Assembly (NCBI RefSeq): GCF_002105155.1
Contig: NW_019028995.1
Span: 372,001-436,000 of the forward strand
DNA: 64,000 bases
Source: Lobosporangium transversale
Taxonomy: Eukaryota
Direction of reading: 5' to 3'
Made by a program: the position numbers and the translations under genes. How positions within the stretch are numbered: position 1 is the stretch's first letter; each line of letters begins with the position of its first letter. The notes beneath the pieces are model-generated. The model worked only from the letters and a program-made list of their open reading frames with translations, had not been told where the DNA came from and made no database searches. Of this stretch, positions 5,401 to 38,867 are shown in pieces.

Positions 5401-7454
5401 GGTCCTCGTAGAATATCGTGCCTGGCCATGATCGCGCTTAACCTATTTGTTATTACTGCAAACATTATTTTCCGTGCGTGCTCCAACAAAGCTATCGGCC
5501 TTACCTCTGCCATGTTTCCTGACCATTCTGGAGCTTTTGGTATGCAATAGAGGAGCCCCGTCTTCCAATCCTTGGGGACGTCTTCTTGCACGATAGTGGC
5601 ACTTATGATTTGGAAGAGGATAAAGAGCCCCTGCGGTCCTTGGTGTTGGATCATTTCGTTCGTAATGCCTGACACACCAGCTGCCTTGTTTTTGGGTGCA
5701 TCCAGGACCACAGCTGAAAACTCATTTCTGCTTGGTGGATCCATCAGACCGTCGTACCATTCACTCTTGATCCACCTCTGAGGGCTATATTGCTTCTGCC
5801 ATCTCGAACCCGGCTCTAGCGGTTTTGACGGCCTACGTCCGTGCCACTTGTCGAACCATGCCCGTACCTTCTCTTTAACTTGCTGTGGCTCTAGAATATT
5901 CACTGTGACACCGCCTTCGTCGTCCTGAATCCGGTCTATTGTCACTTTACCTCCGCCACGTCCCAGCACTTTGTCTATCATTTTCCCTGTTGCCGACTTC
6001 AACTCTCCACAGCGTTTCTCTATCAGGCCATTCATCGTCCTTGTCTTTTCCAGCTTCCTTGTCGCCTGTAAAAATGATATTGACTCTGTCCATCTGTGCT
6101 TTACTCCTCTTACCCAATCTTTCCATACATCGTCGCTATCCTTCGTGTCCGGTATAGTAGTGAGGCCTTCGATCTCCCCTTGTCCTTGCAGCCTCAACCA
6201 CTCAGCATTCTTATTAAATTTTTTCTGCTGCTCTACCAGTGTTGTCCATCTTGCGTCTCTTTGTACTGTTGATAATCCTCTGCGGGTTTGATTTGCCAAT
6301 TTTTTAATTTTAGCGAGATCACGTATGAGGTGGCGGAGACACAATTCTTGTTCTGGCTTCACTCCAGACCGACCAACCACTCTTCCTGGCAAGTTTTCTT
6401 TGGCGCTTTCTATGAGCAGCTTTGAATACCATTTCCATGCAAGGTCAATGTCGATTCTTTGAAGGTCTTCTGGCGTCAAGAGATCCTTTTCATCGTCGTT
6501 CTGGGCTCTCCGTAGGCCCATTGTAGAAGATTCACTGCCGTCTCCAATTCTTATATTCACACCGTTCTCAAAATTCTCCCAATCGTCGTTGCTGGCATCG
6601 CGAAGTAAGAATTTGTAGCCCTTGGGTTTTTTGTAAATGATGTGATGAAGTGGTTGTTGAATAAGGCGGTGCAGTGTCATTTCTAGAGTGACCATTTTGT
6701 GGTCTGACGCCACAATACCATCCAATGATTTGTGTTTGACCCTGAGAAGCCTATCCGTGAATACACTAGATACAAAGATCATGTCTATACGGCTCGTATT
6801 CTGGCAGGTATAGTCTTCACGAAGAGGGTGTTGAGCGCGGAAAACATCATGAAGTGGCTGCGTCTCCATCCATTGAAGTAGTGCCGATTCTGGTCTTATA
6901 CTCGTTGCGTTCTCTCGTCGTCGATCGAGCCGGGGGTTCCTAGTAGCATTGAAATCCCCAAGAATGATTATACCCCTCCCTTCTTCTCTCGCGTCGTTAT
7001 ATTCTTTTTGTATCCATTTAGTAATTACTTCTGCTTCATCTTCCCTTCCGCTTGGTAGGTAGCAGTTAATTACTCTGATTTTAAATCCCCCAGGAAAGTT
7101 GAAATCTCTCGCTTGGCCTCTGCTCCCACAAGATGAAGTTCTCGCAGCGTACTGGAACCAATGCTGAGCGATCAAAAGCCCAACCCCTGTTCCCTGTGTT
7201 GCACCTTCTTTACCACTCACCCACCACATTTTATATTTAGTTTGTTTCAAATTTCTTGCCATTTTACTCCCTCCAACATGCATGTTGGTTTCTTGGAGTG
7301 CTATCATATCTAAATCTTTCATATCACCATATTCACATAACGCTTCTATTTTCCCAGCTTCTAACGCACCCCGTATGTTAAATGATCCAAATTTAATAGC
7401 ATTGCTATTAGATCTAGTACTGTCCTGTCTATTTTGAGTGCTTGCATTACTCAT
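2430..7454 (-). CDS. LINE ORF2: APE endonuclease, reverse transcriptase, RNase H and CCHC knuckle (C-terminally truncated)
   Basis: APE motifs SFNIRG, LQET, LGDFN, SRIDMI, SDH; RT motifs RPIALL, GLDQGGVECP, AFVDD; RNase H motifs YTDGS, KAEL, LDN, WVKGHAGNRGNEEAD; CRVC-x8-H-x3-C. Homologous coding continues past the stop to 1796. Confidence 0.95.
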   Translation of the reverse strand: MSNASTQNRQDSTRSNSNAIKFGSFNIRGALEAGKIEALCEYGDMKDLDMIALQETNMHVGGSKMARNLKQTKYKMWWVSGKEGATQGTGVGLLIAQHWFQYAARTSSCGSRGQARDFNFPGGFKIRVINCYLPSGREDEAEVITKWIQKEYNDAREEGRGIIILGDFNATRNPRLDRRRENATSIRPESALLQWMETQPLHDVFRAQHPLREDYTCQNTSRIDMIFVSSVFTDRLLRVKHKSLDGIVASDHKMVTLEMTLHRLIQQPLHHIIYKKPKGYKFLLRDASNDDWENFENGVNIRIGDGSESSTMGLRRAQNDDEKDLLTPEDLQRIDIDLAWKWYSKLLIESAKENLPGRVVGRSGVKPEQELCLRHLIRDLAKIKKLANQTRRGLSTVQRDARWTTLVEQQKKFNKNAEWLRLQGQGEIEGLTTIPDTKDSDDVWKDWVRGVKHRWTESISFLQATRKLEKTRTMNGLIEKRCGELKSATGKMIDKVLGRGGGKVTIDRIQDDEGGVTVNILEPQQVKEKVRAWFDKWHGRRPSKPLEPGSRWQKQYSPQRWIKSEWYDGLMDPPSRNEFSAVVLDAPKNKAAGVSGITNEMIQHQGPQGLFILFQIISATIVQEDVPKDWKTGLLYCIPKAPEWSGNMAEVRPIALLEHARKIMFAVITNRLSAIMARHDILRGPNFSVLKGTTTKDPIHILQAAMEDAREFKKEQWIVFQDMKRCFDSVNCAPDGMLSRGLRRLQVPEQFIRLCENIAISKVNRVITEYGPTDEYHPECGLDQGGVECPLLWRIAYDALLCEIIDSSTGYSLEGPRGTPSVAGLAFVDDTTWISDSKAHMQEILDIATTFFILNGVEVNAKKTQVICINSKQDRRSTLKFGTPTEEIRPVEKNESVRILGVWVTATGNPTATQQIVEQEIETTCNILRSKALTDRQTTYIVNNVLIPKVLYRISAQMLPPTFLQKMTGKYMSLCKRKARMPSTTPNSIMNHNRLYAIKDLANAQAEEQISTLALRLNDSNVMGRICRTRVLMLQHRNKMEVSPTLEPHRVKKYRHNFISNVCEEMKNRNITFDLSIAAEFGLPHNALSTWKWLNGELPHVWKALTKRMVYFVDQILTDDKEDMISWHAFRTRYGGPKVSPFWFNQLQNFCFDNDYVGRHAREWNRRKLALLDVSDDDSNSDSSYVSSVDGDTEDEDREAIRALNQFIKHEAANRTLTVSPANQAVEPPIGIKWILDQQKERKKRREAVMKEARRATREHNLRRQRAKLDAIVRRAERHQDRERRHGERMRAREEARRRRTQNTRRYEGLSEQALLRRAKVDLDSNETPCLKVIPEVNRGLARDTNGVIISANTEEKIQRQRERYNTQPGNVIYTDGSLKDIGTERVSMAFGVVVQTQEGEFYTALSGRVAGNASSTKAELAGLLAGILISPRNRPMTIRLDNSAVVTQFRALVRGRVDSTLRQRIRSPYAVWWAAIHNAFIQQGSEVTVEWVKGHAGNRGNEEADEAAKHGHYGELWDINITEHNDMYCHAKFNGVPAEDDLRQILKLQSTTRTHHTWIAQNRTQEHVKDWTKIDWRATMNIVHDSNLPKGLFTSPADCQKRAHRIKKLHGMLPTQSYMRHWRPDFYEDGNCRVCGTEDEDTSHIWRCPRTMGTQAEKWKEIIQNVNVIGERT

Positions 7455-9204
7455 TATGGACTAGTGGTTTTGGCGGCAATCCACTTGAGGTTGATTTCTC
7501 TTCTTTTCTACTTTTTTCCTTACTACCTGCTCCGTTTGCTATGAGAGCCATAATCCCTGCTAGGGACTCGTTAGTAGGAGGCATGCCTGGAAAAGCAGCT
7601 GACTTACCTTTGTTTTTGGGCACGTTCCTGTGGAACTCTCCACTCAGTCCTGCTGCCTTCAGGTGCTCGGCTGCGAAGTCCATTCCAAGATGTTGGCTCA
7701 TCATTCCTATTAACATTTGGATTAGTAGACTGTTTTGAGCACGTAGTTGTTGTTGCTCTTCCTGTAGGCGTTCCACTGTATCTACCAGTTGCTGGATTTT
7801 CTTATCGACTGCACCAGTGTTGCTGTTCTTTCCTATGACGTTTGTTTGACCAGAACTTTGGATATTGGTTTTTTCTTCCTGTGCCTTCTGTTGGTTGCTT
7901 TGAGTAACACTTCCACTCTTTCCCGTGGCGGCTTTGGCGTATGAGAGTTGTGGTACAACTTTCAGTGCTCCTCCCTTTTGGTATTCCTTGACAGCTTTGA
8001 TGTGCTGCTTTGTCTCCTGGAGTGCAATGAATACCTCGCATTCCCTCATGATGTGTCCTGGTTTGTGGCATTGTCGGCATCGTTTGTCGTCCTTATCACC
8101 CCAGAAAGTCTCAATGCCCCCGATTTTGACTGGTTTAGTCATAGTTTCCGCCATTGCTTCTGCAGAGGGGAAATACACGAATGCTTCTCGTTGATATTGC
8201 CATTTCTTCCCGTCTTTTGAAAAATAGCGTGGCACTTTGACGAAATTCGCTTGCTTTTCTCCAAGGAGAGGCTCCAAGTCCTTGTCTGTCGTTCCAAAAG
8301 GGAGACCTGAGATTTTTGCGACGTGTGTCAATGTCCACTCGACTCGTTCATTGCCGATTTTGCGGATGCGCGCGAGTTCTTTTCCAATGAAGACGTGCTC
8401 CCGGTTGGCCAATTTGAATTTTGTGACGTCCTCAACATTGTTATAAACTACTGCTGCGGTGATCTTGACTCCCTTGGAGCATGGGCGGGTTGCAATCTTT
8501 TCAATAGTACCGAACTGCAGCATTGCTGACTTGATAAGGAATTCCGGAGTCCTAGGAGCAATACCATAAACCTCCACTGTGCGTTCCAGTTCACGTTCAC
8601 GGGTGTCGGTATTCATTTCAAAAAACAATGGGACTTCGTGTTCATTTCCGTCTTCATCTTTGTGTGTAGCAGTCATTTCCAGGAGCGCTGTCAGGGATGG
8701 TTGATCCTCAACAGCAACACGGAAAGCAGTATATCCATTGACTTTGACCTTGTGTGGTCCTTCTGTGCAATAGATGGCAGCATCCAACAAGACTGTTTCC
8801 AGGTCTTTCTTTTTTTCGGCAACCGTTGTTCCATAAAGGTCCTCGAGGAAGACGCCGGCCGCCTTCAGCCTATCCTTGGTGCGTCTCACTTCCTGCCATT
8901 CTGTGACTCCCACAGTGGCCATTGCGTCATCGTCTTCGTCCATTGCGTCCTGTTCTTGTGTAGCTGCACGCAAGCCATTTGCACCCAGGCTGCGGTTATA
9001 CGAGGGACGGCTCTTAGAGCCCGTTCCCTCGTCAACGCGGCTCCCGCTCGCCTCTATGCCGCTTGCGGGACCGACTTCTTGGTTGTTGGGCTGTCTTTGA
9101 GATCCGATTCCGCTATTTGGAATGCGAGCTCTTTTCGAATGAGGGACATTTCTGTCCAAATTGGGTGGATCATGTTGCTGATTTTTTCCTAATGCAGGTT
9201 CCAT
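7447..9204 (-). CDS. LINE ORF1 (gag-like, RRM-like segments, CCHC zinc knuckle, coiled coil)
   Basis: CRQCHKPGHIMREC knuckle; RRM-like TVEVYGI and AKISGLP; first ATG at 9204 (GTG at 9225); overlaps the ORF2 start by 8 nt. Confidence 0.9.
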   Translation of the reverse strand: MEPALGKNQQHDPPNLDRNVPHSKRARIPNSGIGSQRQPNNQEVGPASGIEASGSRVDEGTGSKSRPSYNRSLGANGLRAATQEQDAMDEDDDAMATVGVTEWQEVRRTKDRLKAAGVFLEDLYGTTVAEKKKDLETVLLDAAIYCTEGPHKVKVNGYTAFRVAVEDQPSLTALLEMTATHKDEDGNEHEVPLFFEMNTDTRERELERTVEVYGIAPRTPEFLIKSAMLQFGTIEKIATRPCSKGVKITAAVVYNNVEDVTKFKLANREHVFIGKELARIRKIGNERVEWTLTHVAKISGLPFGTTDKDLEPLLGEKQANFVKVPRYFSKDGKKWQYQREAFVYFPSAEAMAETMTKPVKIGGIETFWGDKDDKRCRQCHKPGHIMRECEVFIALQETKQHIKAVKEYQKGGALKVVPQLSYAKAATGKSGSVTQSNQQKAQEEKTNIQSSGQTNVIGKNSNTGAVDKKIQQLVDTVERLQEEQQQLRAQNSLLIQMLIGMMSQHLGMDFAAEHLKAAGLSGEFHRNVPKNKGKSAAFPGMPPTNESLAGIMALIANGAGSKEKSRKEEKSTSSGLPPKPLVHNE

Positions 9205-9315
9205 GATGAGTGATGTCGTTGGCACTCTTGTGCGCTAACAGGGGGTGTGGAAGGGGTGTGTATAGAGAGGGAATGTGTAAATGTAGCGTATCCGATGGTG
9301 TACGGAGAAGAGTTT

Positions 9316-17944: not shown

Positions 17945-20141
17945 TCATATAATGGATGAAGACGCCTCGCTACGAGTAGGGATGAAAATATTCAAGGGCA
18001 CCTTGGAGTCACTGGCGTTGTTACTCTCTCTCAGATCTAGCACCCTTTTCGAGGACATTTGAGACGGCACTTGTTTCATGGCCAATGATTTAACCTGGGG
18101 CTGAGATAACTCCTTGGGGCTGATCTTGGCGACATCGGCATAGGTCTTGTCAAGGTCTATGGGATATTCATCCAATAGCTTATTCACGAAGATGTCAATG
18201 TTTCCCAGCACCTCTTCATCCATCTCCGGAAAGTTTTCCAGGTGGTTATCATCTCTGTACAGCGACAGATACGAACTTGTGCCATATCCTTCCATCGAGA
18301 CTAGAGATAGGTCTCCACCAAAATATCGAGCGATCAATCGTGATAGAGGCAGACCATGCCCAGATCGACTCAGAGGAAGGTTCAAGTAGCCTTTGGTCTC
18401 ATCGGCCAATCCGCTCGCGAGTGCGTTAGAATTTGGATCTGTAAGCAACATACCTACTCCCTGTTCATTCCCAAGTCGTTCATTTTCAGCCTTTGGTGTG
18501 ACTGAAGTGGCAAAGTGCATATAGCTCCAGATCTTGTCTAATTGTGACAAGGCTATCCCGCCGCCTTGATCTGTGATCTTGATTGTCACATCCTCACTAC
18601 CGTCAACTAGTGCCAGTGTGATGGGCGGTAGTTTTGAGCTAGTACCAAGACTTGATAGCTTAGACATTCCAAGCGAAATTGGGTTCCCATCCTTGCTCAA
18701 ATGTGTCTCACAAGTTGCTCTCATGGCATTCTTGAGAAGCTCAAAGATGGTTCGATGGAGAAAATCATCCACATAAGTCATGGTGATGTCTGGGTTAAAC
18801 GTCTGGATCAAGACGGATGGCGCCGGTTGTCCATAGTGTACGGAACAAACACGTTGAGCATCCTTGATAGCACGCTGTGAGGTCGAGAGCAGATTCACAC
18901 GCTGCGCTAAGTTTAACTCGTGATCGCGGAGCGCAAGTTGCTCACCTTCGTAAATGAAAAGGAGCCAGTTAATTTACAGTCATGATGTCACATAGGAACT
19001 TGGAATTTTGAATCAGACCCTACAAAAAATAAACAATAAACATATCCTTACCAATTAAAAGTTGAGTACTAAGGTTGATGGAATAAAATCTATCGAAATA
19101 GGCCTGGATATCCCTGTCCATTTGTGGATCAATGAGCAACCTTTTATTATCAGTAGTTGATTGCAGACTAGCTTTAGTCGAGGTAGCGTCATCTCGATAA
19201 TCTGTGAACTGAGCTTGGAGAGACTTCGTAAACTCTTTGAAACCCTGACTGAGAGCCAACATCTTGATTTTGTGTCGATGGCCTAGGTCTCGGAGCAACA
19301 TTGTAAACTCTTTCTCTAGCTGAGGGCTTGATGGCTTCGGCATCTGGACCAAAAGGCTAATAATATCATTTGTGGGTATGTCACCGATGAATTCATATAG
19401 TTCATCAGCAAGTAAAACAGGAGGTGTAAAAGTATGTTAGAGCGGTTTTAGTAAAGCTTAAAGGACTGAACGTGGAAAACTGGATCAGTTACTCCTAATA
19501 GTAATAAAAGATGGTCATTCGGCTGGTATTCCTTGTCCTACTGCTCTGTTGTATGAGATCATCTTTTTTTTCTTCCACTCTGCAGTATCTTTCCCTTCCC
19601 GATCCAATTCTTTTTCTAAAAATTAAGGCAAACAAGTGCATAAAATACATTGAAGGAACAAACCTAATGTCTTCCAAGTAGGACCTGGCGATGTTCTGAA
19701 AGGTCGGCATCTCTGACATATTAGTCCCCAGCAGTTTTGAGTTCAACATGCTGAGGGCATGCGACAGACGGATAGGGAGTTCTCGATGTAAGAACACTGC
19801 AGGGATGACCAACGCGTCTTGATTATTTGACGCGAGGACATGTCTAATGAACAGAACAAGTCATATGAGTATTTGCTTCAAGACAAAAAGTCAGAACAGT
19901 GAGATTCTTTCTTTGTCTTTTTACTTCCTCTCATTACCGTCCAAGTGTGTATATTTGTTTGAGCTTATATCAAACAAAAAAAAAAAAAAAAAAAAAAAAA
20001 GATTGAACAAAATAGATTCGTTAGAAACTAAATGCGTAGGGATATTGTTATACTCAAGGAAGAAGCCCTTACAGACAATCGAGTCGCTTTGAAGCGACAC
20101 AGTTTAATGATAAGAGCAGCCTGAGTTTTATTCATAGGCAT
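17945..20141 (-). CDS. Mitochondrial alpha-ketoacid dehydrogenase kinase (PDK/BCKDK family), multi-exon
   Basis: FLHRELPIRLSH, FELLKNAMRAT (N box), IKITDQGGGI (G1), GLPLSRLIARYFGGDLSLVSMEGYGT; first exon boundaries approximate. Confidence 0.85.
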
Positions 20142-20697
20142 TAAGTTTTTTTTTTTTTTTTTGGATTGTTATAGAAGAGAGAAAGAGAGAGTGTGTGTAA
20201 ATGTAAGTCTGTGTTGTGTCCGTCTAAAGTAGGGCTAAGGAGTGATAAACGCGAATACCATTCGGTGGCGAAGGGTTGGAGGACGAATAAGAGAGAGAGG
20301 AAAAGATAATCATGAACATTGCACGAGAGACAAAGGATTGAGCCAAGCTAGGTTGGAAGAAAAAGAAAAAGGCGATAAAGAGAAGATGCGAAATTTCGGC
20401 CGAAGTAACGAAGCGCCAAATGTAAGCAAGAGAAGATTGAAGTGACTGAGACAGCGGAAGCGAAGGCTACGGAAGAAAGAAAGAAAAATGAATAAAATGT
20501 TTCCAGCCGAATAGAAGGAACCGGAACCAGTGAGACATCTGTGGGGTATCAGGCAACTCTTTACTCTTTTTCAACCAACAGTTAATCAGATTAAGCGTTT
20601 ATAATGATTATACGCGAGTGCGCAGATTTATATATTACAAAAGCGAAGGGGGAAAGTATATACTATTAAAGGAATAATATGGAGACGGTGATTGATT

Positions 20698-21516
20698 TTA
20701 GAAGAGGAATGCAGAAACACCGACTGCAGTTGCCAGGACCAACGTCTTGACAAAAGAGTTAGCGACTATACCGGCATCGCTGTTGAAGCCTTTGCCATGG
20801 TCAGAGTGATCACTGGTGGAAGTGGGTTTAGAAGGTACTGTAGTGGTTCCAGTGCCGTTGCCAGGGTTGGGTGCAACATACTTGAGGTCGCAGAAAGGTG
20901 CAAACTTGGTATTGGAGCACATAGTATTGTAAGAAGGGCACTGCTTCATGTCAGGCATATCGAGGCACAATCCCTTCCATGCCTTAACTTCGTCACAATT
21001 GCTGTAGCCGGATGCTTCAGGCGTGGGGCAAATCTTACAATCGGTCATCATGGGCATCTCCTGACAGATAGAATAAACAGTTCCAGTCACGGTCTTACCA
21101 GAAGGAAGACCGGGGAATGCAGGCTGACCTTTACATGCAGGAATGAGAGAGTTGGCGGCACAAAATATAGAGTAGCTCTTTGAGCAAACAGTACCAGTGA
21201 GAACTGCATCCTCCGTTGGGATGCAGAGCGAGGCCAAGATAGTCATTGGTGCACAATAGGTGGTACTCAGCTTAGAATCAGCTGTGCAGGCAGCGTTGAG
21301 TGAGCATCCAGGCAAGAACGAGTTGATAGCACAGATCTCCTTGATAGCATCCGTAATGGTTGCATTTGGTACAACAAATGTTGAACATACGGCATCAGTG
21401 GGAGTAGCCAAGCAGCCAGAAGGAGCAGTGGCTGGGGGATCGTGAGGATGACCATCATGAGCAGTAGCGGAGGCGACGAAGACTGAGGCAACGGCGAAGA
21501 GCAAAGAGGAGCGCAT
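20698..21516 (-). CDS. Secreted, probably GPI-anchored Cys/Met-rich protein, paralog of the neighbouring Ctr ectodomain
   Basis: Signal peptide ending SATA, mature N-terminus HDGHPH, LPGCSL, ICQEMPMMTDC and LCLDMPDMKQC motifs, Ser/Thr linker, hydrophobic C-terminus. Confidence 0.85.
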   Translation of the reverse strand: MRSSLLFAVASVFVASATAHDGHPHDPPATAPSGCLATPTDAVCSTFVVPNATITDAIKEICAINSFLPGCSLNAACTADSKLSTTYCAPMTILASLCIPTEDAVLTGTVCSKSYSIFCAANSLIPACKGQPAFPGLPSGKTVTGTVYSICQEMPMMTDCKICPTPEASGYSNCDEVKAWKGLCLDMPDMKQCPSYNTMCSNTKFAPFCDLKYVAPNPGNGTGTTTVPSKPTSTSDHSDHGKGFNSDAGIVANSFVKTLVLATAVGVSAFLF

Positions 21517-21645
21517 CTTTCACTTGTTTCGTTTGTTTTGGGTTATGGTTGGTGAGTTGTTGTTAGATCTTGTGCAAAAGAAAGGAAGAGATGAATGAAA
21601 ATAGAGAAAAATGCTGAAGTGGTCATGGAATGGAGGAGGACGACA

Positions 21646-22280
21646 CTTTTATACCGAAATCCTTGGTTTAATATTTGCTCTCAAGATGACAGACATAGAT
21701 GAATGTCAAGGGGTGTTTAATATCTTGATGGATTTGACAGGTGGTGTGGGCTTCTGTTAAAAGTCGCAAAAATGCTCTCATTCTTGGTGTGATAATTTGC
21801 TTTTATTGAATTGGAGTGAGTATATACAACATATGAAAAAAAAAAATGACAGTTGAATGTTTGACATACCGAAGAGGTACTCGTTTTCCTGGGTCCTCAA
21901 TTTTCCTGATGTTCCATTTTGACAAACATCAGCCTGTTTATTTTTGTGGACGCACTCTTTTTGACAGGTGAAACCGGCATGCATCCATCTCTCAGTTGTT
22001 CAACTGTCATTATTTTGACATTTTCTTCTTCTTCCTTTATTCCCCCCTTTCTTTTTTCCTTCACTGCGTTATTCCTGTCTCTTTATTTACATATATTATA
22101 TAATACTCTTTCTATTCCCCCTAGATTTCCCTGTCTTTTTCTATTTTCTTCTTTAATAGTTGTAGTTATTCCTGTTGTTCTCATTGCTTATTCATCTGTA
22201 CATCTCTTTCGTGGCGTTTTTGACATTCAAGATCATTCCACTTTTTTTTTTTTTTTTTTTTTTTTTTTGGCGGTATAAAA
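21646..22280. promoter_or_regulatory. Bidirectional promoter with clustered TTTGACA motifs
   Basis: TATAAAA on the minus strand near 21647-21653 and on the plus strand near 22274; TTTGACA at 21733, 21860, 21918, 21960, 22014 and 22219; TGTCAA at 21704; TTTGCTC at 21674. Confidence 0.65.
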
Positions 22281-22357
22281 CCAAGTCCTTTTCGAATTCT
22301 CTTTGAACCCAAATTCTTGTTCATTTAATTCACTCCCTTTAAAAAGAATAGTAAGGA

Positions 22358-23575
22358 ATGAAAGCCTTATCATTCCTTAGAACCAGCCCCCACTTGGCGT
22401 TGTTGTTTCTTCTTGGAACACTCTCTATTACCCATCATGTCCAGGCACAGAGTGTCGATTGTCTAATTACACCTTCCGATCCTTCTTGCGCTTCCTTTGA
22501 GCTGCCGGAGGCGACAATCAAAGCTGATCTAGATGGCCTCTGCACCCAAATGCCATACATGCCTGGTTGCTCGCTCTATAAATCATGTCAGGCTGCTTCC
22601 AAGGCTGATCAGTGGTGCACACCTTTCTCAGTATTGGCAGACATCTGTGCCTTGGATATGCCTAACATGCGCGACTGTAAGAATTATGTTGCTCTCTGTG
22701 GCGCTGCCGTGAATCAGACCTTGGCCGCTCGGCCTGCTATCTGCAAGAAGGCCCCCATGATCTCGGCGTTCCCGACCACCAAGAATGCCTCAGCTCTCGT
22801 CATTGACATTTGCACAGAGATGGATATGGCCGGTTGTGAGCGATGCCCCAAACCCAAGCCCGATACCTATGCGGCTGATTGTGATACCCTCGGTACTTAT
22901 GCGATCCTGTGCAAGGCCATGCCAGACATGCACCAGTGTGCTGCTTGGAAATCCATGTGTTCCTCTTCTTCTGATACTGCCTCAGTTCTCAACTTCCAGG
23001 ATTCCGAATACTGCGCTGCTGGTGTCGGTAGTCCTGATATGAACCCGCCTGCCATGCGTATGTACTTCCATTTAGGCTTCTCGGATTATGTCTTATTTGA
23101 GAAGTGGGTTCCTCGAAATCAGAGCCAGTACATTGGTACTTGGTTTGCACTCTTCTTCCTCACACTTTTTTTCCAGACTGTTCAGACCTACCATAACTGC
23201 CTCGAGGCCCAATGGGCGGAGGAGTATATAGCCGAAAGTGAAGAAGTTTCAAAGTCGGATTCTTCCATTCCTTTGGCTTCTAGCAAAGGCTCGCGTTCCA
23301 ATCCAATCCTCCTCCAATGGATGCATATCTGGCGCCAACCTTGGACGCTGAAGGAGGCAAAGCAAAACATGTTCCGTGCTGTGCTGACTTTTATCGAAAC
23401 TACACTTGGATATGCACTCATGCTAGTTACTATGACCTTTAATGTGCCTTTGTTCTTTGCCGTCATTCTCAGCCTAACCGTTGGCTCAGTAGTCTTTTCA
23501 AGGCAACGTTCAGTAGTTATGATCAAATCCAACGCCAATGCTGCCAGTGGAACTGGTTGTGCTGGCTGCGGTTAA
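22358..23575 (+). CDS. Ctr-family copper transporter with signal peptide and large Cys/Met-rich extracellular domain
   Basis: MRMYFH...VLFEKW before TM1, YALMLVTMTFN (MxxxM) in TM2, a third TM segment, C-terminal CxxC; ectodomain with C..MPxMxxC repeats. Confidence 0.93.
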   Translation: MKALSFLRTSPHLALLFLLGTLSITHHVQAQSVDCLITPSDPSCASFELPEATIKADLDGLCTQMPYMPGCSLYKSCQAASKADQWCTPFSVLADICALDMPNMRDCKNYVALCGAAVNQTLAARPAICKKAPMISAFPTTKNASALVIDICTEMDMAGCERCPKPKPDTYAADCDTLGTYAILCKAMPDMHQCAAWKSMCSSSSDTASVLNFQDSEYCAAGVGSPDMNPPAMRMYFHLGFSDYVLFEKWVPRNQSQYIGTWFALFFLTLFFQTVQTYHNCLEAQWAEEYIAESEEVSKSDSSIPLASSKGSRSNPILLQWMHIWRQPWTLKEAKQNMFRAVLTFIETTLGYALMLVTMTFNVPLFFAVILSLTVGSVVFSRQRSVVMIKSNANAASGTGCAGCG

Positions 23576-25560
23576 AAGCACATCTTACTTTCTTCGTAAG
23601 CTCCACTATAATCCGAATGTAAATAAATGTCATATTCAATATCAAAATAAAAATAAAGTGCATGTCTTACCTTTCTATATTATGACCTCTGAGTCGGATA
23701 AAACCACCTATTACGCTTTGATTCATACTGTCGGACAAATCAAATACATGTATGCATGCGTCTTATTTTCCAATATGAAGAACGTGAGGGTAGTCCAGAC
23801 TGCCGTACATTTACCACTATCCGTTACCTTGGCGTAGTTCTGGATTGCATGCTAATAGGACATTTACAATAATATACAGTGCATATCAAAATTAGCAAAA
23901 ATTTTACCTTCTTTATTTCCTCCGCTTTTACTGCATGTTCAGAGCGAACTGGATTGGAATAAAGGACTAAACGAACAAAGCTTCATTAAAAAATAAATAA
24001 CGTTCGTAACCGGCCACCACAGTCCCCTGACATGAATTCCATTGAACACATGTGTTGAACTCAAGAGAAGGCTTGGAAAGTATTTTTTCTTTTTTTTTAC
24101 AGCCTTTGACAACAATGACAAAACTGTAAAATATGAATGTATTCGCCAAAATTAACGTAGATGACTCCTTTCTTCTAGCACTAGATACTAAAATGGATCA
24201 ATCATTGATGAAATAAGACACGTGTATAATGAATATATTTGTGTATATCCATCGTATCCATAGTGAACTGACTTATTTTATTTCTTTACAAGGCCATCTC
24301 GCATTTTGTCTTTACTGTTTGAGAAGATATCACGAAGATATCACACGGCCATTGATTAAAACACCCTCTAGATTTTATTAGGGATATATGCAATTGAATA
24401 GTGTCGTTCATCCTATCACGTATGTATATATATATCATGGCATGTTTCCTTCTATCTGTTGTAAGGATTTCCCTGTTTAGCTCTGATAATTCTATTAACT
24501 TTTTAGATAGATGGCCCATTAAACCAAGGGAGATCTGATTAAGCCAGAGAGCAATCTATAAAGAATGTTAAAGTACAATGTCAAGGAAGTCAAATACCTA
24601 TCCCGAGTCAGTAAGCATGTTCGTGTACATGCACATAAAAATATTATACATGTACTTGTACTTGTATGGCGGAAGAATCTTCCAGACAACACAATAGGTT
24701 AATTTTTGACTTACTTTTGACAAACTTTAAAAGAATATTCATGTACCTGTCAAAACGCTGACTCGGGACCGACCGCCCATCAGTACCTTAACCCATACAT
24801 GTACAGGCTTTTTGTGATGTTTTTCTTTTTTCTACTTTCCTTTTGATGAAATGACATCCTTAATGGTAAACCCCGCATCGATTAAAATTTCTTTTTACTG
24901 TATGGTCAGCTGTGTGAAGGAGATCTATTGGTGTTATTGTTCAAGTTATTGATCTGTCTCTTATGGACGTATCGATATGAATTCACTAACGACAGTTATA
25001 AGAGTTGCTCGAACAACAAAATAAAGTATAGGGCCAATTTTGGCAGACAGGGGTAGAGGAAGGAGGAGGACTTTCAGGTACTACCATGGCCGTGTCAATA
25101 GTTTATATTTGTCAAGTTGATAAAGAGAGTTGACAGACTGAGTAAATGTATTATTTAAGGTTTGACAAAGAGACAAATCCTTGTCTCCTTTGAGGTACAC
25201 AATTTTGACGTTGACACAAACAAACAACGTGCCTTCTATTTGTTTTCCGTTGCCCTATACATTCAAAAACAAATACATGTAGCACTTTAGAAACTCTTGT
25301 TGTAGAGCTTGAGCCAATCCAGAAGCAACAAGGCCACTAATATATTTTTCCCAAGGTTATCAGCACTAGATAAGGAATGAAGATGCAAGAATTAGTTACT
25401 ATCGCAAAAAGCATCATCGTCAATAGATTCAGTATAAAATGGTCCCTCTCCCGCTTTCTCTTTCTTTACTGTCGTGCCACATTTTGCTACCACTTCCTCA
25501 GTCATATATCCGTCTTCTATATCTCTTTACTGTAATACATCACATCAGTTTTTTTCAACC

Positions 25561-26205
25561 ATGAAGTTCGTTGCTGTCGCCTCTGCTGCCATCTCAACTA
25601 TCCTCTTCGCCACCCCGTTGGCCGAAGCCCATGTTACTGCCAACCCCTCAGCTGCTGTCTCAGGGTCCTACTTTCAGACTAGTTTTCGTGTCCCTCATGG
25701 TTGTGATGGTAATGCTACAAACCTGGTCATTGTCGAAATCCCCAAGGGTGTTTCCTCAGTTAAGCCCCGCCCTCTCTATCCTTGGAATACTACCATTTCC
25801 ATGGTACCTCTCGATACCCCCATCACCACACCTACGGGCACCATCAATACCACCGTTGGTTCTATTACCTGGTCCAATGGTCTAATCCAAGATAACATGT
25901 ACGAAGATTTCGGATTGCAGTTCAAGTTACCAACTCAGGAAGGCCCTCTCTACTGGAAGGTCTACCAGCATTGCGTCAATAACGAATGGAACAACTGGAC
26001 CAGCGTCCCTGACGCCAACGGAAAGACTGATGGTTTCCCTGCAGCCGTTATTACTCTTTCCAATTCCACAACTACCACTGGCCCTGGAGGTGCTTCCCCT
26101 TCCGCTAGCAGCAAGCCTAGTGCTGCTGTCGCCGCCTTCCAGAGCTTGAACTTCGGCCGCGTCGCTCTTATCAGCTCTGGTGCCTTCTTGGTCGCTCTTA
26201 TTTAA
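25561..26205 (+). CDS. YcnI/DUF1775-family copper-binding protein, secreted with a GPI-like tail
   Basis: Signal peptide ending AEA, mature N-terminus HVT, FRVPHGCDG, IPKGV..VKP...W, ITWSNG, WKVYQHC, NW; Ser/Thr linker and hydrophobic C-terminus; TATAAAA near 25433. Confidence 0.85.
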   Translation: MKFVAVASAAISTILFATPLAEAHVTANPSAAVSGSYFQTSFRVPHGCDGNATNLVIVEIPKGVSSVKPRPLYPWNTTISMVPLDTPITTPTGTINTTVGSITWSNGLIQDNMYEDFGLQFKLPTQEGPLYWKVYQHCVNNEWNNWTSVPDANGKTDGFPAAVITLSNSTTTTGPGGASPSASSKPSAAVAAFQSLNFGRVALISSGAFLVALI

Positions 26206-31404: not shown

Positions 31405-33850
31405 ATGGAACCTGCATTAGGAAAAAATCAGCAACATGATCCACCCAATTTGGACAGAAATGTCCCTCATTCGAAAAGAGCTCGCATTCCAAATAGCGGA
31501 ATCGGATTGGCTGAGTAGTATACTCGTCAGGGCACCCCCCTGTCTAGCCCAGGGGCCGGGTTCGAGTCCTGGTTAAGGCACATAAAGTGAAGCAAACATG
31601 TGCCAGGTCAGGGATTTGCTTGAGTTTTTATACTTTCTCTCCGAGACAGCCTAGTGTTCTCCGCTAAGGCTAAGATCGTGGGTGCACTACCCTAAGTCGC
31701 CTGGCTGGCCACATGTCTTAGGTATATATTCCACCCCCCAGCCGAACCAGCGGTACATCTGGCAGCACATCCCCCCATCCACCCACTTGACTAGGACAGC
31801 GATGATCACAAAGTTTGACGGAGTCCAAAATAGAAATTTCAGACCAATTCCGCAAGATTTGGGTCCACATGCCAGTGGATTTGATCTAATAGAAAAAATT
31901 AAAAAAGTCGTCCTTAGCTAGAGTCGGCACGCCAGCCTCCGCAGCTTTTCACGGGCGCAACAGGCCACATCGGAAGGATGGACTTCGAGTACCGATCACG
32001 GTGTACATTGGTAGAGAAAAACATGGATACGAATTGGCTCTTCACAGCCATCCCGTGCGAACTTTGAGAGTTTCGCTTGTTTCATAGTTGAGGGCGATAT
32101 CATTACTTTAGAGCGAGATTATGAAATAAAATTCCTCACCTCTGTGGGTTCTTGTTAACAGGAAAAAAAAAAAAATCCAAATAGCGGAATCGGATCTCAA
32201 AGACAGCCCAACAACCAAGAAGTCGGTCCCGCAAGCGGCATAGAGGCGAGCGGGAGCCGCGTTGACGAGGGAACGGGCTCTAAGAGCCGTCCCTCGTATA
32301 ACCGCAGCCTGGGTGCAAATGGCTTGCGTGCAGCTACACAAGAACAGGACGCAATGGACGAAGACGATGACGCAATGGCCACTGTGGGAGTCACAGAATG
32401 GCAGGAAGTGAGACGCACCAAGGATAGGCTGAAGGCGGCCGGCGTCTTCCTCGAGGACCTTTATGGAACAACGGTTGCCGAAAAAAAGAAAGACCTGGAA
32501 ACAGTCTTGTTGGATGCTGCCATCTATTGCACAGAAGGACCACACAAGGTCAAAGTCAATGGATATACTGCTTTCCGTGTTGCTGTTGAGGATCAACCAT
32601 CCCTGACAGCGCTCCTGGAAATGACTGCTACACACAAAGATGAAGACGGAAATGAACACGAAGTCCCATTGTTTTTTGAAATGAATACCGACACCCGTGA
32701 ACGTGAACTGGAACGCACAGTGGAGGTTTATGGTATTGCTCCTAGGACTCCGGAATTCCTTATCAAGTCAGCAATGCTGCAGTTCGGTACTATTGAAAAG
32801 ATTGCAACCCGCCCATGCTCCAAGGGAGTCAAGATCACCGCAGCAGTAGTTTATAACAATGTTGAGGACGTCACAAAATTCAAATTGGCCAACCGGGAGC
32901 ACGTCTTCATTGGAAAAGAACTCGCGCGCATCCGCAAAATCGGCAATGAACGAGTCGAGTGGACATTGACACACGTCGCAAAAATCTCAGGTCTCCCTTT
33001 TGGAACGACAGACAAGGACTTGGAGCCTCTCCTTGGAGAAAAGCAAGCGAATTTCGTCAAAGTGCCACGCTATTTTTCAAAAGACGGGAAGAAATGGCAA
33101 TATCAACGAGAAGCATTCGTGTATTTCCCCTCTGCAGAAGCAATGGCGGAAACTATGACTAAACCAGTCAAAATCGGGGGCATTGAGACTTTCTGGGGTG
33201 ATAAGGACGACAAACGATGCCGACAATGCCACAAACCAGGACACATCATGAGGGAATGCGAGGTATTCATTGCACTCCAGGAGACAAAGCAGCACATCAA
33301 AGCTGTCAAGGAATACCAAAAGGGAGGAGCACTGAAAGTTGTACCACAACTCTCATACGCCAAAGCCGCCACGGGAAAGAGTGGAAGTGTTACTCAAAGC
33401 AACCAACAGAAGGCACAGGAAGAAAAAACCAATATCCAAAGTTCTGGTCAAACAAACGTCATAGGAAAGAACAGCAACACTGGTGCAGTCGATAAGAAAA
33501 TCCAGCAACTGGTAGATACAGTGGAACGCCTACAGGAAGAGCAACAACAACTACGTGCTCAAAACAGTCTACTAATCCAAATGTTAATAGGAATGATGAG
33601 CCAACATCTTGGAATGGACTTCGCAGCCGAGCACCTGAAGGCAGCAGGACTGAGTGGAGAGTTCCACAGGAACGTGCCCAAAAACAAAGGTAAGTCAGCT
33701 GCTTTTCCAGGCATGCCTCCTACTAACGAGTCCCTAGCAGGGATTATGGCTCTCATAGCAAACGGAGCAGGTAGTAAGGAAAAAAGTAGAAAAGAAGAGA
33801 AATCAACCTCAAGTGGATTGCCGCCAAAACCACTAGTCCATAATGAGTAA
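31405..33850 (+). pseudogene. LINE ORF1 of copy 2, split by a SINE insertion
   Basis: MEPALGKNQ start at 31405; the frame resumes after 32195 and matches copy 1 ORF1. Confidence 0.9.
31508..32175 (+). mobile_element. tRNA-headed SINE / non-autonomous LINE partner (about 670 bp)
   Basis: A and B boxes at the 5' end, LINE-like 3' UTR, poly(A), perfect 20-bp TSD TCCAAATAGCGGAATCGGAT at 31488-31507 and 32176-32195. Confidence 0.93.
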
Positions 33851-36800
33851 TGCAAGCACTCAAAATAGACAGGACAGTACTAGATCTAATAGCAATGCTA
33901 TTAAATTTGGATCATTTAACATACGGGGTGCGTTAGAAGCTGGGAAAATAGAAGCGTTATGTGAATATGGTGATATGAAAGATTTAGATATGATAGCACT
34001 CCAAGAAACCAACATGCATGTTGGAGGGAGTAAAATGGCAAGAAATTTGAAACAAACTAAATATAAAATGTGGTGGGTGAGTGGTAAAGAAGGTGCAACA
34101 CAGGGAACAGGGGTTGGGCTTTTGATCGCTCAGCATTGGTTCCAGTACGCTGCGAGAACTTCATCTTGTGGGAGCAGAGGCCAAGCGAGAGATTTCAACT
34201 TTCCTGGGGGATTTAAAATCAGAGTAATTAACTGCTACCTACCAAGCGGAAGGGAAGATGAAGCAGAAGTAATTACTAAATGGATACAAAAAGAATATAA
34301 CGACGCGAGAGAAGAAGGGAGGGGTATAATCATTCTTGGGGATTTCAATGCTACTAGGAACCCCCGGCTCGATCGACGACGAGAGAACGCAACGAGTATA
34401 AGACCAGAATCGGCACTACTTCAATGGATGGAGACGCAGCCACTTCATGATGTTTTCCGCGCTCAACACCCTCTTCGTGAAGACTATACCTGCCAGAATA
34501 CGAGCCGTATAGACATGATCTTTGTATCTAGTGTATTCACGGATAGGCTTCTCAGGGTCAAACACAAATCATTGGATGGTATTGTGGCGTCAGACCACAA
34601 AATGGTCACTCTAGAAATGACACTGCACCGCCTTATTCAACAACCACTTCATCACATCATTTACAAAAAACCCAAGGGCTACAAATTCTTACTTCGCGAT
34701 GCCAGCAACGACGATTGGGAGAATTTTGAGAACGGTGTGAATATAAGAATTGGAGACGGCAGTGAATCTTCTACAATGGGCCTACGGAGAGCCCAGAACG
34801 ACGATGAAAAGGATCTCTTGACGCCAGAAGACCTTCAAAGAATCGACATTGACCTTGCATGGAAATGGTATTCAAAGCTGCTCATAGAAAGCGCCAAAGA
34901 AAACTTGCCAGGAAGAGTGGTTGGTCGGTCTGGAGTGAAGCCAGAACAAGAATTGTGTCTCCGCCACCTCATACGTGATCTCGCTAAAATTAAAAAATTG
35001 GCAAATCAAACCCGCAGAGGATTATCAACAGTACAAAGAGACGCAAGATGGACAACACTGGTAGAGCAGCAGAAAAAATTTAATAAGAATGCTGAGTGGT
35101 TGAGGCTGCAAGGACAAGGGGAGATCGAAGGCCTCACTACTATACCGGACACGAAGGATAGCGACGATGTATGGAAAGATTGGGTAAGAGGAGTAAAGCA
35201 CAGATGGACAGAGTCAATATCATTTTTACAGGCGACAAGGAAGCTGGAAAAGACAAGGACGATGAATGGCCTGATAGAGAAACGCTGTGGAGAGTTGAAG
35301 TCGGCAACAGGGAAAATGATAGACAAAGTGCTGGGACGTGGCGGAGGTAAAGTGACAATAGACCGGATTCAGGACGACGAAGGCGGTGTCACAGTGAATA
35401 TTCTAGAGCCACAGCAAGTTAAAGAGAAGGTACGGGCATGGTTCGACAAGTGGCACGGACGTAGGCCGTCAAAACCGCTAGAGCCGGGTTCGAGATGGCA
35501 GAAGCAATATAGCCCTCAGAGGTGGATCAAGAGTGAATGGTACGACGGTCTGATGGATCCACCAAGCAGAAATGAGTTTTCAGCTGTGGTCCTGGATGCA
35601 CCCAAAAACAAGGCAGCTGGTGTGTCAGGCATTACGAACGAAATGATCCAACACCAAGGACCGCAGGGGCTCTTTATCCTCTTCCAAATCATAAGTGCCA
35701 CTATCGTGCAAGAAGACGTCCCCAAGGATTGGAAGACGGGGCTCCTCTATTGCATACCAAAAGCTCCAGAATGGTCAGGAAACATGGCAGAGGTAAGGCC
35801 GATAGCTTTGTTGGAGCACGCACGGAAAATAATGTTTGCAGTAATAACAAATAGGTTAAGCGCGATCATGGCCAGGCACGATATTCTACGAGGACCAAAC
35901 TTCTCTGTTCTTAAAGGTACTACCACTAAGGATCCAATCCATATCCTGCAAGCGGCAATGGAAGACGCAAGAGAGTTCAAGAAAGAACAGTGGATTGTGT
36001 TCCAAGACATGAAACGGTGTTTCGACTCTGTCAACTGCGCCCCCGATGGGATGCTTTCTCGCGGACTAAGACGGCTCCAGGTCCCTGAACAGTTCATACG
36101 CCTATGTGAAAACATCGCCATTTCCAAAGTGAACAGGGTGATTACTGAATACGGACCAACTGACGAGTATCATCCAGAGTGCGGTTTGGATCAAGGTGGA
36201 GTGGAATGTCCGCTTTTATGGAGAATAGCATATGATGCACTCCTGTGTGAAATTATAGACAGTAGCACTGGATATAGTCTAGAGGGACCAAGAGGGACAC
36301 CATCAGTTGCTGGCCTTGCTTTCGTGGATGATACTACATGGATATCGGACTCCAAAGCACATATGCAGGAGATACTTGACATTGCAACGACATTCTTCAT
36401 TCTTAACGGGGTGGAAGTGAACGCCAAGAAAACGCAGGTCATCTGTATCAACAGCAAGCAGGATAGGAGGAGCACGCTGAAATTTGGGACACCTACAGAA
36501 GAGATCCGACCAGTGGAAAAGAATGAATCGGTACGGATTCTTGGTGTTTGGGTCACAGCAACAGGAAATCCAACAGCAACACAGCAAATAGTGGAGCAGG
36601 AAATAGAAACGACCTGTAACATTCTCCGGTCCAAAGCCCTGACAGATCGGCAGACAACGTATATTGTCAATAATGTGCTCATCCCAAAGGTGCTGTATAG
36701 GATTTCGGCCCAAATGTTGCCACCAACGTTCCTACAGAAGATGACTGGTAAGTATATGTCACTGTGTAAGCGGAAAGCACGTATGCCATCAACTACGCCA

Positions 36801-38867
36801 AACAGCATTATGAACCACAATAGATTGTATGCCATCAAAGACTTGGCGAACGCTCAAGCGGAAGAACAAATATCTACCCTGGCGCTTCGACTTAATGACA
36901 GCAATGTAATGGGACGGATATGTCGGACACGAGTACTGATGCTGCAGCACAGGAATAAGATGGAAGTCTCGCCAACTTTGGAGCCACATCGTGTCAAAAA
37001 GTATCGCCACAACTTTATATCGAATGTTTGTGAAGAAATGAAGAATCGTAACATTACTTTCGACCTATCGATCGCAGCCGAATTTGGTCTCCCACACAAC
37101 GCTCTCTCGACATGGAAATGGCTAAACGGAGAATTACCACACGTATGGAAGGCGCTCACCAAGCGTATGGTATACTTTGTGGATCAAATACTTACGGATG
37201 ATAAGGAGGACATGATCTCATGGCACGCATTCAGGACCCGTTACGGAGGGCCTAAAGTTTCGCCATTCTGGTTCAACCAACTTCAAAACTTTTGCTTCGA
37301 CAACGATTATGTGGGTAGGCATGCAAGAGAATGGAACAGGAGGAAACTGGCACTTTTAGACGTCAGTGATGATGACAGCAACAGCGACAGTAGTTATGTC
37401 AGCTCGGTAGACGGGGATACAGAAGACGAAGATCGAGAAGCGATTCGTGCACTCAACCAATTCATAAAGCATGAGGCAGCGAACAGAACCTTGACAGTAT
37501 CACCGGCTAATCAAGCTGTTGAGCCACCAATTGGAATTAAGTGGATTCTAGATCAACAGAAGGAGCGGAAAAAGAGACGAGAAGCTGTTATGAAAGAGGC
37601 GCGCAGAGCAACCAGAGAACATAATCTTAGGCGACAAAGAGCAAAGTTAGATGCCATAGTCAGAAGAGCAGAACGCCACCAGGACCGAGAGCGAAGGCAT
37701 GGTGAACGCATGCGAGCCCGCGAAGAAGCGAGGAGACGCCGGACCCAGAACACAAGGAGATATGAGGGTCTGAGCGAGCAAGCTCTGCTAAGGAGAGCAA
37801 AAGTCGACCTGGATTCCAACGAGACACCGTGCCTAAAAGTGATCCCTGAAGTCAACAGAGGCCTAGCCAGGGACACAAATGGAGTTATCATTAGTGCCAA
37901 TACCGAGGAGAAAATCCAACGCCAAAGGGAACGGTACAATACCCAGCCGGGTAATGTCATTTATACGGATGGATCTCTCAAAGATATTGGCACTGAAAGA
38001 GTAAGTATGGCATTTGGTGTGGTAGTCCAGACACAAGAGGGTGAGTTTTACACTGCGCTATCTGGTAGAGTAGCAGGCAACGCATCCTCGACAAAGGCAG
38101 AGCTAGCTGGTTTGTTGGCAGGAATACTTATCAGCCCACGAAACAGACCTATGACAATCCGACTTGATAACAGCGCAGTTGTGACTCAATTCCGAGCATT
38201 GGTCCGAGGCAGAGTGGATAGCACGTTGCGACAACGTATTAGATCACCGTATGCAGTATGGTGGGCAGCTATACACAACGCATTTATTCAACAAGGATCG
38301 GAAGTCACGGTCGAGTGGGTCAAAGGACATGCCGGCAACAGAGGGAACGAAGAAGCGGACGAAGCAGCAAAACATGGACATTATGGCGAGCTATGGGATA
38401 TCAACATAACGGAGCATAATGACATGTACTGCCATGCAAAGTTCAACGGTGTACCAGCGGAAGATGACTTAAGGCAGATCCTTAAGTTACAGTCAACAAC
38501 TCGTACACATCACACGTGGATCGCTCAGAACAGGACGCAGGAGCATGTTAAGGATTGGACAAAAATTGATTGGCGAGCTACTATGAACATTGTTCATGAT
38601 AGCAACCTACCGAAAGGACTCTTCACCAGCCCAGCGGACTGCCAAAAGCGAGCGCACAGGATCAAGAAACTCCATGGAATGTTGCCTACACAGTCATATA
38701 TGAGACACTGGAGGCCAGACTTTTATGAAGACGGCAACTGCAGAGTGTGTGGGACAGAGGATGAAGACACATCGCACATCTGGAGATGTCCAAGGACGAT
38801 GGGGACTCAGGCCGAGAAGTGGAAGGAGATAATCCAAAATGTGAATGTGATAGGGGAGAGGACATGA
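33843..38867 (+). CDS. LINE ORF2 of copy 2 (APE-RT-RNase H-CCHC)
   Basis: Translation matches 2430..7454, with the same premature TGA. Confidence 0.95.
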   Translation: MSNASTQNRQDSTRSNSNAIKFGSFNIRGALEAGKIEALCEYGDMKDLDMIALQETNMHVGGSKMARNLKQTKYKMWWVSGKEGATQGTGVGLLIAQHWFQYAARTSSCGSRGQARDFNFPGGFKIRVINCYLPSGREDEAEVITKWIQKEYNDAREEGRGIIILGDFNATRNPRLDRRRENATSIRPESALLQWMETQPLHDVFRAQHPLREDYTCQNTSRIDMIFVSSVFTDRLLRVKHKSLDGIVASDHKMVTLEMTLHRLIQQPLHHIIYKKPKGYKFLLRDASNDDWENFENGVNIRIGDGSESSTMGLRRAQNDDEKDLLTPEDLQRIDIDLAWKWYSKLLIESAKENLPGRVVGRSGVKPEQELCLRHLIRDLAKIKKLANQTRRGLSTVQRDARWTTLVEQQKKFNKNAEWLRLQGQGEIEGLTTIPDTKDSDDVWKDWVRGVKHRWTESISFLQATRKLEKTRTMNGLIEKRCGELKSATGKMIDKVLGRGGGKVTIDRIQDDEGGVTVNILEPQQVKEKVRAWFDKWHGRRPSKPLEPGSRWQKQYSPQRWIKSEWYDGLMDPPSRNEFSAVVLDAPKNKAAGVSGITNEMIQHQGPQGLFILFQIISATIVQEDVPKDWKTGLLYCIPKAPEWSGNMAEVRPIALLEHARKIMFAVITNRLSAIMARHDILRGPNFSVLKGTTTKDPIHILQAAMEDAREFKKEQWIVFQDMKRCFDSVNCAPDGMLSRGLRRLQVPEQFIRLCENIAISKVNRVITEYGPTDEYHPECGLDQGGVECPLLWRIAYDALLCEIIDSSTGYSLEGPRGTPSVAGLAFVDDTTWISDSKAHMQEILDIATTFFILNGVEVNAKKTQVICINSKQDRRSTLKFGTPTEEIRPVEKNESVRILGVWVTATGNPTATQQIVEQEIETTCNILRSKALTDRQTTYIVNNVLIPKVLYRISAQMLPPTFLQKMTGKYMSLCKRKARMPSTTPNSIMNHNRLYAIKDLANAQAEEQISTLALRLNDSNVMGRICRTRVLMLQHRNKMEVSPTLEPHRVKKYRHNFISNVCEEMKNRNITFDLSIAAEFGLPHNALSTWKWLNGELPHVWKALTKRMVYFVDQILTDDKEDMISWHAFRTRYGGPKVSPFWFNQLQNFCFDNDYVGRHAREWNRRKLALLDVSDDDSNSDSSYVSSVDGDTEDEDREAIRALNQFIKHEAANRTLTVSPANQAVEPPIGIKWILDQQKERKKRREAVMKEARRATREHNLRRQRAKLDAIVRRAERHQDRERRHGERMRAREEARRRRTQNTRRYEGLSEQALLRRAKVDLDSNETPCLKVIPEVNRGLARDTNGVIISANTEEKIQRQRERYNTQPGNVIYTDGSLKDIGTERVSMAFGVVVQTQEGEFYTALSGRVAGNASSTKAELAGLLAGILISPRNRPMTIRLDNSAVVTQFRALVRGRVDSTLRQRIRSPYAVWWAAIHNAFIQQGSEVTVEWVKGHAGNRGNEEADEAAKHGHYGELWDINITEHNDMYCHAKFNGVPAEDDLRQILKLQSTTRTHHTWIAQNRTQEHVKDWTKIDWRATMNIVHDSNLPKGLFTSPADCQKRAHRIKKLHGMLPTQSYMRHWRPDFYEDGNCRVCGTEDEDTSHIWRCPRTMGTQAEKWKEIIQNVNVIGERT

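Follow-up and report, generated by a model that had tools for sequence, protein, structure and literature searches.

In a 64,000-nucleotide stretch of the Lobosporangium transversale genome (contig NW_019028995.1, positions 372,001 to 436,000; the window, in whose coordinates all positions are given), three neighbouring genes encode a stand-alone CTRA protein (P0001, 272 residues; 20698..21516, minus strand), a copper transporter of the Ctr family with a CTRA ectodomain (P0002, 405 residues; 22358..23575, plus strand) and a YcnI/DUF1775 protein (P0003, 214 residues; 25561..26205, plus strand). Homology, domain make-up, a conserved neighbourhood and a common upstream motif are the established parts of this cluster, and we consider it reasonably probable that the free CTRA protein, Ctr and YcnI form a co-regulated module that gathers scarce copper at the Mortierellaceae cell surface.

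The name CTRA was given to this Cys-rich region by Strenkert et al. (bioRxiv 10.1101/2023.10.19.563170), who described it from green algae, Amoebozoa and early-diverging fungi, both fused to a transporter (CTRA-CTR) and as a stand-alone protein. A sequence-only reading of the window had proposed that the free protein is a duplicate of the Ctr ectodomain, encoded head-to-head with the transporter and matching it Cys for Cys, and had quoted five pairs of corresponding motifs and two His clusters, all of which are present in the translations. The Cys-for-Cys match was borne out: BLASTP aligned the two proteins with 66 of 197 residues identical (34%; expectation value, E, 7e-28), and in an alignment of 112 sequences each of the 18 Cys in the free protein pairs with one of the 18 in the Ctr ectodomain. 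The domain spans C35-C209 in the free protein (20890..21414, minus strand; placed by alignment and AlphaFold) and C35-C219 in Ctr (22460..23014, plus strand), where it carries four Cys-Met motifs. Structure prediction, proposed earlier alongside pairwise alignment as a check, agreed: the AlphaFold models, each with a mean predicted local distance difference test (pLDDT) score of 82, contain the same helix series, as judged by comparing helix boundaries rather than superposed coordinates (residues 51-64, 69-79, 90-98, 101-113, 126-130, 140-153, 176-186 and 194-203 in the free protein; 51-64, 69-80, 89-100, 105-114, 127-131, 141-154, 177-187 and 192-201 in Ctr). Residues 41-210 of the free protein are modelled as all-helical at pLDDT 95-98.

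While the homology stood, the free protein is not a plain copy of the ectodomain, half of the Met sites being gone. Met pairs are kept only in Cys-Met motifs 3 (C151-C160) and 4 (C184-C193), which leaves the protein without four motif Met residues relative to the four-motif Ctr ectodomain, and these last two motifs are likewise the only ones in all 29 free proteins of the Mortierellaceae type. It opens with a signal peptide and a His-rich start, and its CTRA domain is followed by a Ser/Thr/His stalk and a tail of the glycosylphosphatidylinositol (GPI) type. The predicted signal peptide (residues 1-19) and predicted mature start, His20-Asp-Gly-His-Pro-His, lie at 21442..21516 (minus strand), the cleavage site being placed by an Ala/His-x-Gly pattern, cut after Ala, that recurs in 24 of the 25 relatives with the usual start. 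The stalk (residues 210-245; Ser/Thr/Pro, with DHSDH) and predicted GPI-type tail lie at 20698..20889 (minus strand), with the small-residue site N246-S247-D248 between stalk and tail, and the stalk His pair is found in 21 of 29 relatives. The same layout of signal, Ser/Thr stalk, small-residue site and uncharged hydrophobic C-terminal tail is present in the YcnI protein, and by this pattern, called from hydropathy and tail tallies, both proteins are predicted to be GPI-anchored at the surface.

The gene for the free protein was delimited from its open reading frame (ORF), BLASTP, hydropathy and unspliced contig cover, and differs from the public annotation. Its best match is a 100% identical L. 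transversale record, the 225-residue NCBI model BCR41DRAFT_54260 (19921-20887), which splices away the stalk and tail. The 272-residue reading stands because one contig of run X1 spans 20203-21556 without a gap and because all 28 other homologue matches carry a hydrophobic C-terminal tail; the 225-residue model is probably wrong. Its splice was not seen in X1, which falls short of showing absence, given that the acceptor lies at a skipped repeat and two joints were dropped. The type of X1 was guessed, the run being taken as RNA-like from spliced joints in the neighbouring kinase gene, and in this one run the locus is transcribed; genes were not ranked by contig depth, and no weight was given to the uncovered bin 21938-22254.

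No Pfam family matched the free protein. Its model gave no Foldseek match in the PDB at E<=0.001, and the best of 48,161 chains compared by VIA-align reached Z 3.6, with none at 5 or above; the absence of a structural match does not demonstrate a new fold for CTRA. All Atlas matches fell below 0.9 (recognition 1968) and were treated as leads only, and a candidate link to CFEM proteins was dropped, the lead scoring 0.82 against the bar of 0.9 and Pfam giving no CFEM match. Comparison with the Bim1/Cbi1/X325 His-brace proteins likewise yielded no Pfam match, an all-helical model and no PDB match. Strenkert et al. expect the Cys residues of CTRA to bind copper; their invariance and even number, in a helical domain that is secreted, suggest that they form disulfides rather than serve as metal ligands. 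A putative copper-capture role for the free protein is supported by its context, as set out below.

Among the seven window ORFs scanned with Pfam, copper domains were found in Ctr and YcnI. The Ctr match (PF04145) covers residues 235-380 at E 2.5e-29, above the curated cut-off, and the pore domain, placed by Pfam and alignment, lies at 23060..23497 (plus strand), with the helices of a three-helix Ctr/SLC31 pore present in the AlphaFold model. The MxxxM of the second transmembrane helix, M355-M359 (23420-23434), is invariant in 41 sequences, and a C-terminal CxxC follows the pore motifs. The transporter is a one-domain CTRA-CTR, 42% identical to a two-domain Ctr of Dictyostelium citrinum.

The third gene had been overlooked in the sequence-only reading, as had the Met loss in motifs 1 and 2 and the TTGACA clusters described below. 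Its product (Pfam DUF1775, E 7.5e-35) combines a signal peptide, a predicted His1 (H24), a PHGC motif, W146, a Ser/Thr stalk and the GPI-type tail. H24 and W146 are invariant in 23 YcnI sequences and align with the copper site of Bacillus subtilis YcnI (7me6); the His and Trp pair is conserved in about 95% of the family, in which a subtype with His and Trp and without Glu, mostly from proteobacteria, has been described (10.1101/2021.06.11.448128). In Atlas structure comparisons the protein matched a bacterial YcnI cluster with template modelling scores of 0.71-0.84, its own cluster being eukaryote-only with 92 members, mostly Mucoromycota. A homologue search of limited reach returned named matches from Mortierellaceae and far weaker ones that were bacterial-type or unnamed. 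The Mortierellaceae sequences form one clade (99/99), the DUF1775 tree resolved no bacterial sister clade for fungal YcnI, and we regard acquisition from bacteria as likely. A second, near-identical YcnI record on another contig of the same species (P0086) has an altered N-terminus and a missing middle, and may reflect a recent duplication, a damaged gene copy or duplication in the assembly.

The three genes are also neighbours in other Mortierellaceae, as judged from the locus tags of homologue matches, which carry no orientation. Tags of the free and Ctr genes are adjacent in 11 of 12 assemblies showing both, the exception being a 2.2-kb contig with a partial gene; for Ctr and YcnI the distance is at most two tags in 13 of 16, and the three misses fall on contigs of 0.6-18 kb; and all three are consecutive in seven of the eight assemblies where all were seen. 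Where only free and YcnI tags were available, they were two apart in two assemblies, four apart on the same contig in one and unlinked in three. The order in Actinomortierella wolfii is YcnI, free, Ctr, a change which indicates that the genes stayed together through rearrangement. Thus, the adjacency of the proposed two-gene pair was upheld, but the unit is a three-gene cluster. In a second species the one related locus with DNA compared (L001) has the same head-to-head free/Ctr pair; its DNA ends 1.6 kb past Ctr, before any YcnI. Downstream of the free gene, an intron-containing gene for a HATPase_c kinase (17945-19860, minus strand) is syntenic there (5000-6834 of L001). Linkage of free and fused CTRA also occurs in algae: on one contig of Volvox africanus, Vafri_3459 (stand-alone CTRA) and Vafri_3456 (CTRA-Ctr) are three tags apart (P0142, P0216).

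The head-to-head spacer shared by the free and Ctr genes, 841 bp between their ATGs (21517..22357), contains seven copies of TTGACA (21704, 21734, 21861, 21919, 21961, 22015 and 22220) against 0.90 expected, and the spacer upstream of YcnI (23576..25560) contains nine (24106-25211) against 1.87, in each case a count reached in 0 of 1000 shuffles. These window statistics are after the fact, since TTTGACA was first picked as the top 7-mer of the head-to-head spacer. At L001 five copies occur in the head-to-head spacer (0.39 expected) and seven in the other (1.37), each again with 0 of 1000 shuffles, and blastn does not align the L001 spacers with those of the window. All four cluster spacers are thus enriched, against none of eight control stretches (lowest 49/300). 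The head-to-head spacer is likely to act as a bidirectional promoter. TTGACA does not fit the Mac1-type element. None of the seven window sites of TTTGC[TG]C[AG], which we take to be the Mac1-type pattern, lies in either spacer, and one TTTGCTC, presumably a copper element, occurs at 21674; the TGACA core resembles what we take to be TALE-homeodomain and WRKY-like sites. A spliced contig (23920-25555, plus strand; GT..AG intron 24420-24506) runs for 1.6 kb across the TTGACA sites and as far as the start of YcnI; in spliced form it has 33 upstream ATGs and no ATG frame longer than 52 residues, and this transcript may be a long non-coding RNA or a repressive upstream one. The sequence TACATGTA, with four copies in the Ctr-YcnI spacer (24579-25290) and none elsewhere in the window, is a possible second regulatory element.

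To place the free protein within the family, a profile built from it and 25 relatives was used, which matched 471 proteins at E<=0.001. The best 150 of the 471, those considered, included three-domain proteins without a pore from Chlamydomonas incerta (E 4e-25) and Edaphochlamys (E 6e-40), with BLASTP values from the free protein of 1e-16 and 7e-23, respectively; BLASTP against the D. citrinum Ctr gave E 1e-20. From organism and architecture we infer that the algal proteins are CTR3 orthologues and the D. citrinum Ctr is P80. The comparison with Chlamydomonas CTR3 drawn in the sequence-only reading thus reflects real homology, and given these CTR3-like and P80-like relatives, both the CTRA domain and the notion of a free partner were already known. 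Among 222 family proteins, some of them fragments, 137 have a Ctr pore, 61 are pore-less with a hydrophobic tail, and 24 have neither feature. Thirty of the 61 tail-bearing pore-less proteins are not of the Mortierellaceae type; 22 of these were looked up and 14 had an organism, namely the chytrids Quaeritorhiza (twice), Polychytrium, Spizellomyces, Gaertneriomyces (twice), Rhizophlyctis, Synchytrium, Borealophlyctis and Hyaloraphidium, together with Calcarisporiella, Conidiobolus and two green algae. Two GPI-type CTRA proteins of about 400 residues (P0257, P0211) have an extra domain, the one from Synchytrium being named DOMON domain-containing by its source.

Strenkert et al. reported several independent origins of stand-alone CTRA. 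In our IQ-TREE analysis of 38 of the 222 CTRA domains, picked after a FastTree result, the five Mortierellaceae free proteins grouped with ten other fungal tail-bearing proteins, those of chytrids and Calcarisporiella among them, apart from all 19 Ctr-fused rows (95/96); with the motif 1-2 columns removed and a mixture model, support was 93/92 and the long Conidiobolus row left the group. The Met residues of motifs 1 and 2 are absent from all 15 rows of this free class, and the Conidiobolus member has lost every motif Met. Another four rows with a tail, from Hyaloraphidium, two algae and a Quaeritorhiza protein that has four motifs, were placed with the Ctr-fused domains and seem to have arisen separately. 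Forcing the Mortierellaceae free and fused proteins together cost 22 log units (approximately unbiased test, p-AU 0.149). The head-to-head arrangement of the earlier reading is therefore correct, but its local duplication fares less well: the trees favour, without being decisive, an old paralogue kept or brought beside Ctr, and at this p-AU a local duplication of the Ctr ectodomain is not rejected. By its sequence features the free protein is a GPI-type CTRA subclass lacking two of the four Cys-Met motifs, beyond the published family; in the main text of the CTRA preprint, as distinct from its supplements and figure leaves, the strings "GPI", "Mortierella" and "Mucoro" occur 0 times. No description of the cluster, of fungal YcnI or of the TTGACA motif was found in listings of the open literature; subscription journals and the preprint's supplements, which lay beyond reach, may list them.

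Taken together, these features suggest how such a module might work. Low copper would turn on the three genes via the TTGACA repeats, and the free CTRA protein and YcnI would be secreted and GPI-anchored on stalks, where they would raise local copper at Ctr. Cu(II) could be bound by the His1/Trp site of YcnI and by the His-rich start and stalk of the free protein, and reduced by a reductase encoded elsewhere, and the resulting Cu(I) would be held by Met pairs on a helical scaffold stapled by disulfides, with 18 conserved extracellular Cys. From the free protein, with half the Met sites, Cu(I) would pass to the four-motif Ctr ectodomain and from there into the pore, with its MxM and MxxxM Met rings. 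These steps are all inferred, the direct hand-off, the GPI attachment and the copper regulation among them. A more far-reaching version, which we offer only tentatively and regard as doubtful, is that of a Mortierellaceae copper-capture regulon of three origins, an old GPI-anchored CTRA receptor, a CTRA-Ctr channel and a bacterial YcnI that acquired a GPI signal, controlled by a novel TTGACA-binding copper sensor unlike Mac1/Cuf1 and relaying Cu(II) on His to Cu(I) on Met on a fold with no solved relative.

Several observations weigh against a copper-gathering module. The loss of four motif Met residues means that binding by the free protein could be weaker or changed; the Glu50 ligand of B. 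subtilis YcnI is replaced, aligning with His46-Gly47 of the window protein; the third transmembrane helix of Ctr has SxxxG (S372-x3-G376), whereas GxxxG is present in at least 90% of relatives; none of the seven scanned ORFs was seen to encode a reductase; and the TTGACA evidence comes from two genomes. Chlamydomonas ctr3 mutants have no copper phenotype, and CTR3 is neither stably held at the membrane nor stably bound to CTR1/2 (bioRxiv 10.1101/2023.10.19.563170). Deletion of a comparable Aspergillus trio, discussed below, did not impair growth on iron-limited media (PMC2481287).

The free protein might instead be a surface copper buffer or store that protects the cell or wall and later releases its copper, with no direct hand-off to Ctr. 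In favour of this, CTR3 is not stably bound to CTR1/2, the flexible His-rich segments of the free protein would suit buffering, and Cryptococcus Cbi1 has wall roles independent of Ctr1 and a mutant that resists toxic copper (PMC9258870). On the other hand, the free gene shares spacer and motif with an importer gene, which fits induction in scarcity rather than excess, and we consider such a buffer rather unlikely. The Met losses could alternatively mean that the free protein changed its ligand or became a structural wall protein, and sits beside Ctr merely through a common promoter; absence of the motif 1-2 Met residues throughout the free class, the bare Conidiobolus member and the sub-threshold Atlas leads to Cys-rich GPI proteins such as CFEM all point that way. 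This seems unlikely given the retention of motifs 3 and 4 in every Mortierellaceae-type protein, the conservation of His20 and the missing Pfam CFEM match. Finally, the accessory proteins might load secreted or surface cuproenzymes, such as multicopper oxidases, rather than the channel. In vitro, copper passed more readily from YcnJ to YcnI than in reverse (10.1101/2025.05.23.655588), as such loading would lead one to expect. Linkage to Ctr in nearly all assemblies, and the lack of any cuproenzyme among the neighbours scanned (the seven ORFs), make it very unlikely, even though YcnI relatives in some bacteria are fused to a PF04314 domain, which we take to be a copper chaperone.

If the copper-gathering module is real, early-diverging fungi captured surface copper with parts unlike those of Bim1-Ctr in Dikarya, one of them apparently a bacterial domain. 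CTR3, which has no mutant phenotype, is the sole stand-alone CTRA protein tested, and the cluster provides a family-wide, three-part case with point predictions: the four Met residues M154, M157, M187 and M190, His20, His24 and Trp146 of YcnI, and the seven TTGACA sites. TTGACA itself points to an uncharacterised regulatory element, and the 272-residue reading puts back the predicted anchor that a public gene model cuts away.

Elsewhere in the window are two apparently identical copies, in opposite orientation, of what we take from its domains to be an element like non-long-terminal-repeat retrotransposons (2430-9234 and 32159-38867), with a first ORF of about 595 residues and a second of 1676, and a related third ORF at 39766-42378.

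Compared with known systems, the free protein belongs by sequence to the CTRA family, of which Chlamydomonas CTR1, CTR2 and CTR3 and Dictyostelium P80 with its soluble paralogue are also members. Chlamydomonas CTR3, whose own copper binding is a prediction (bioRxiv 10.1101/2023.10.19.563170), is soluble with three CTRA domains, whereas the Lobosporangium protein has a single such domain with half of the Met motifs, is rich in His at its ends and finishes in a GPI-type tail, and so lacks the CTR3-like make-up of a secreted, unanchored, three-domain protein. The ycnKJI system of B. subtilis also places a membrane-tethered DUF1775 protein with N-terminal His and Trp beside a copper importer; there, the site and the membrane anchor of YcnI are needed for low-copper growth, and YcnI exchanges Cu(II) with the CopC domain of YcnJ (10.1101/2025.05.23.655588). 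The fungal YcnI protein differs in its GPI-type tether and in the replacement of the Glu ligand (PHGC subtype), and the importer encoded beside it is a eukaryotic Ctr and not CopD. Cbi1/Bim1 of Cryptococcus neoformans resembles the free protein in being a GPI copper protein induced with, and working through, Ctr1, but is an LPMO-like (lytic polysaccharide monooxygenase-like) His-brace (PMC9258870), in contrast to an all-helical Cys/Met domain. The trio Afu6g02800-02820 of Aspergillus fumigatus likewise comprises three adjacent, co-induced genes, for a GPI protein, a Ctr and a metalloreductase (PMC2481287); with two capture proteins, CTRA and YcnI, and no reductase seen, the Lobosporangium cluster is a parallel solution rather than a homologous one.

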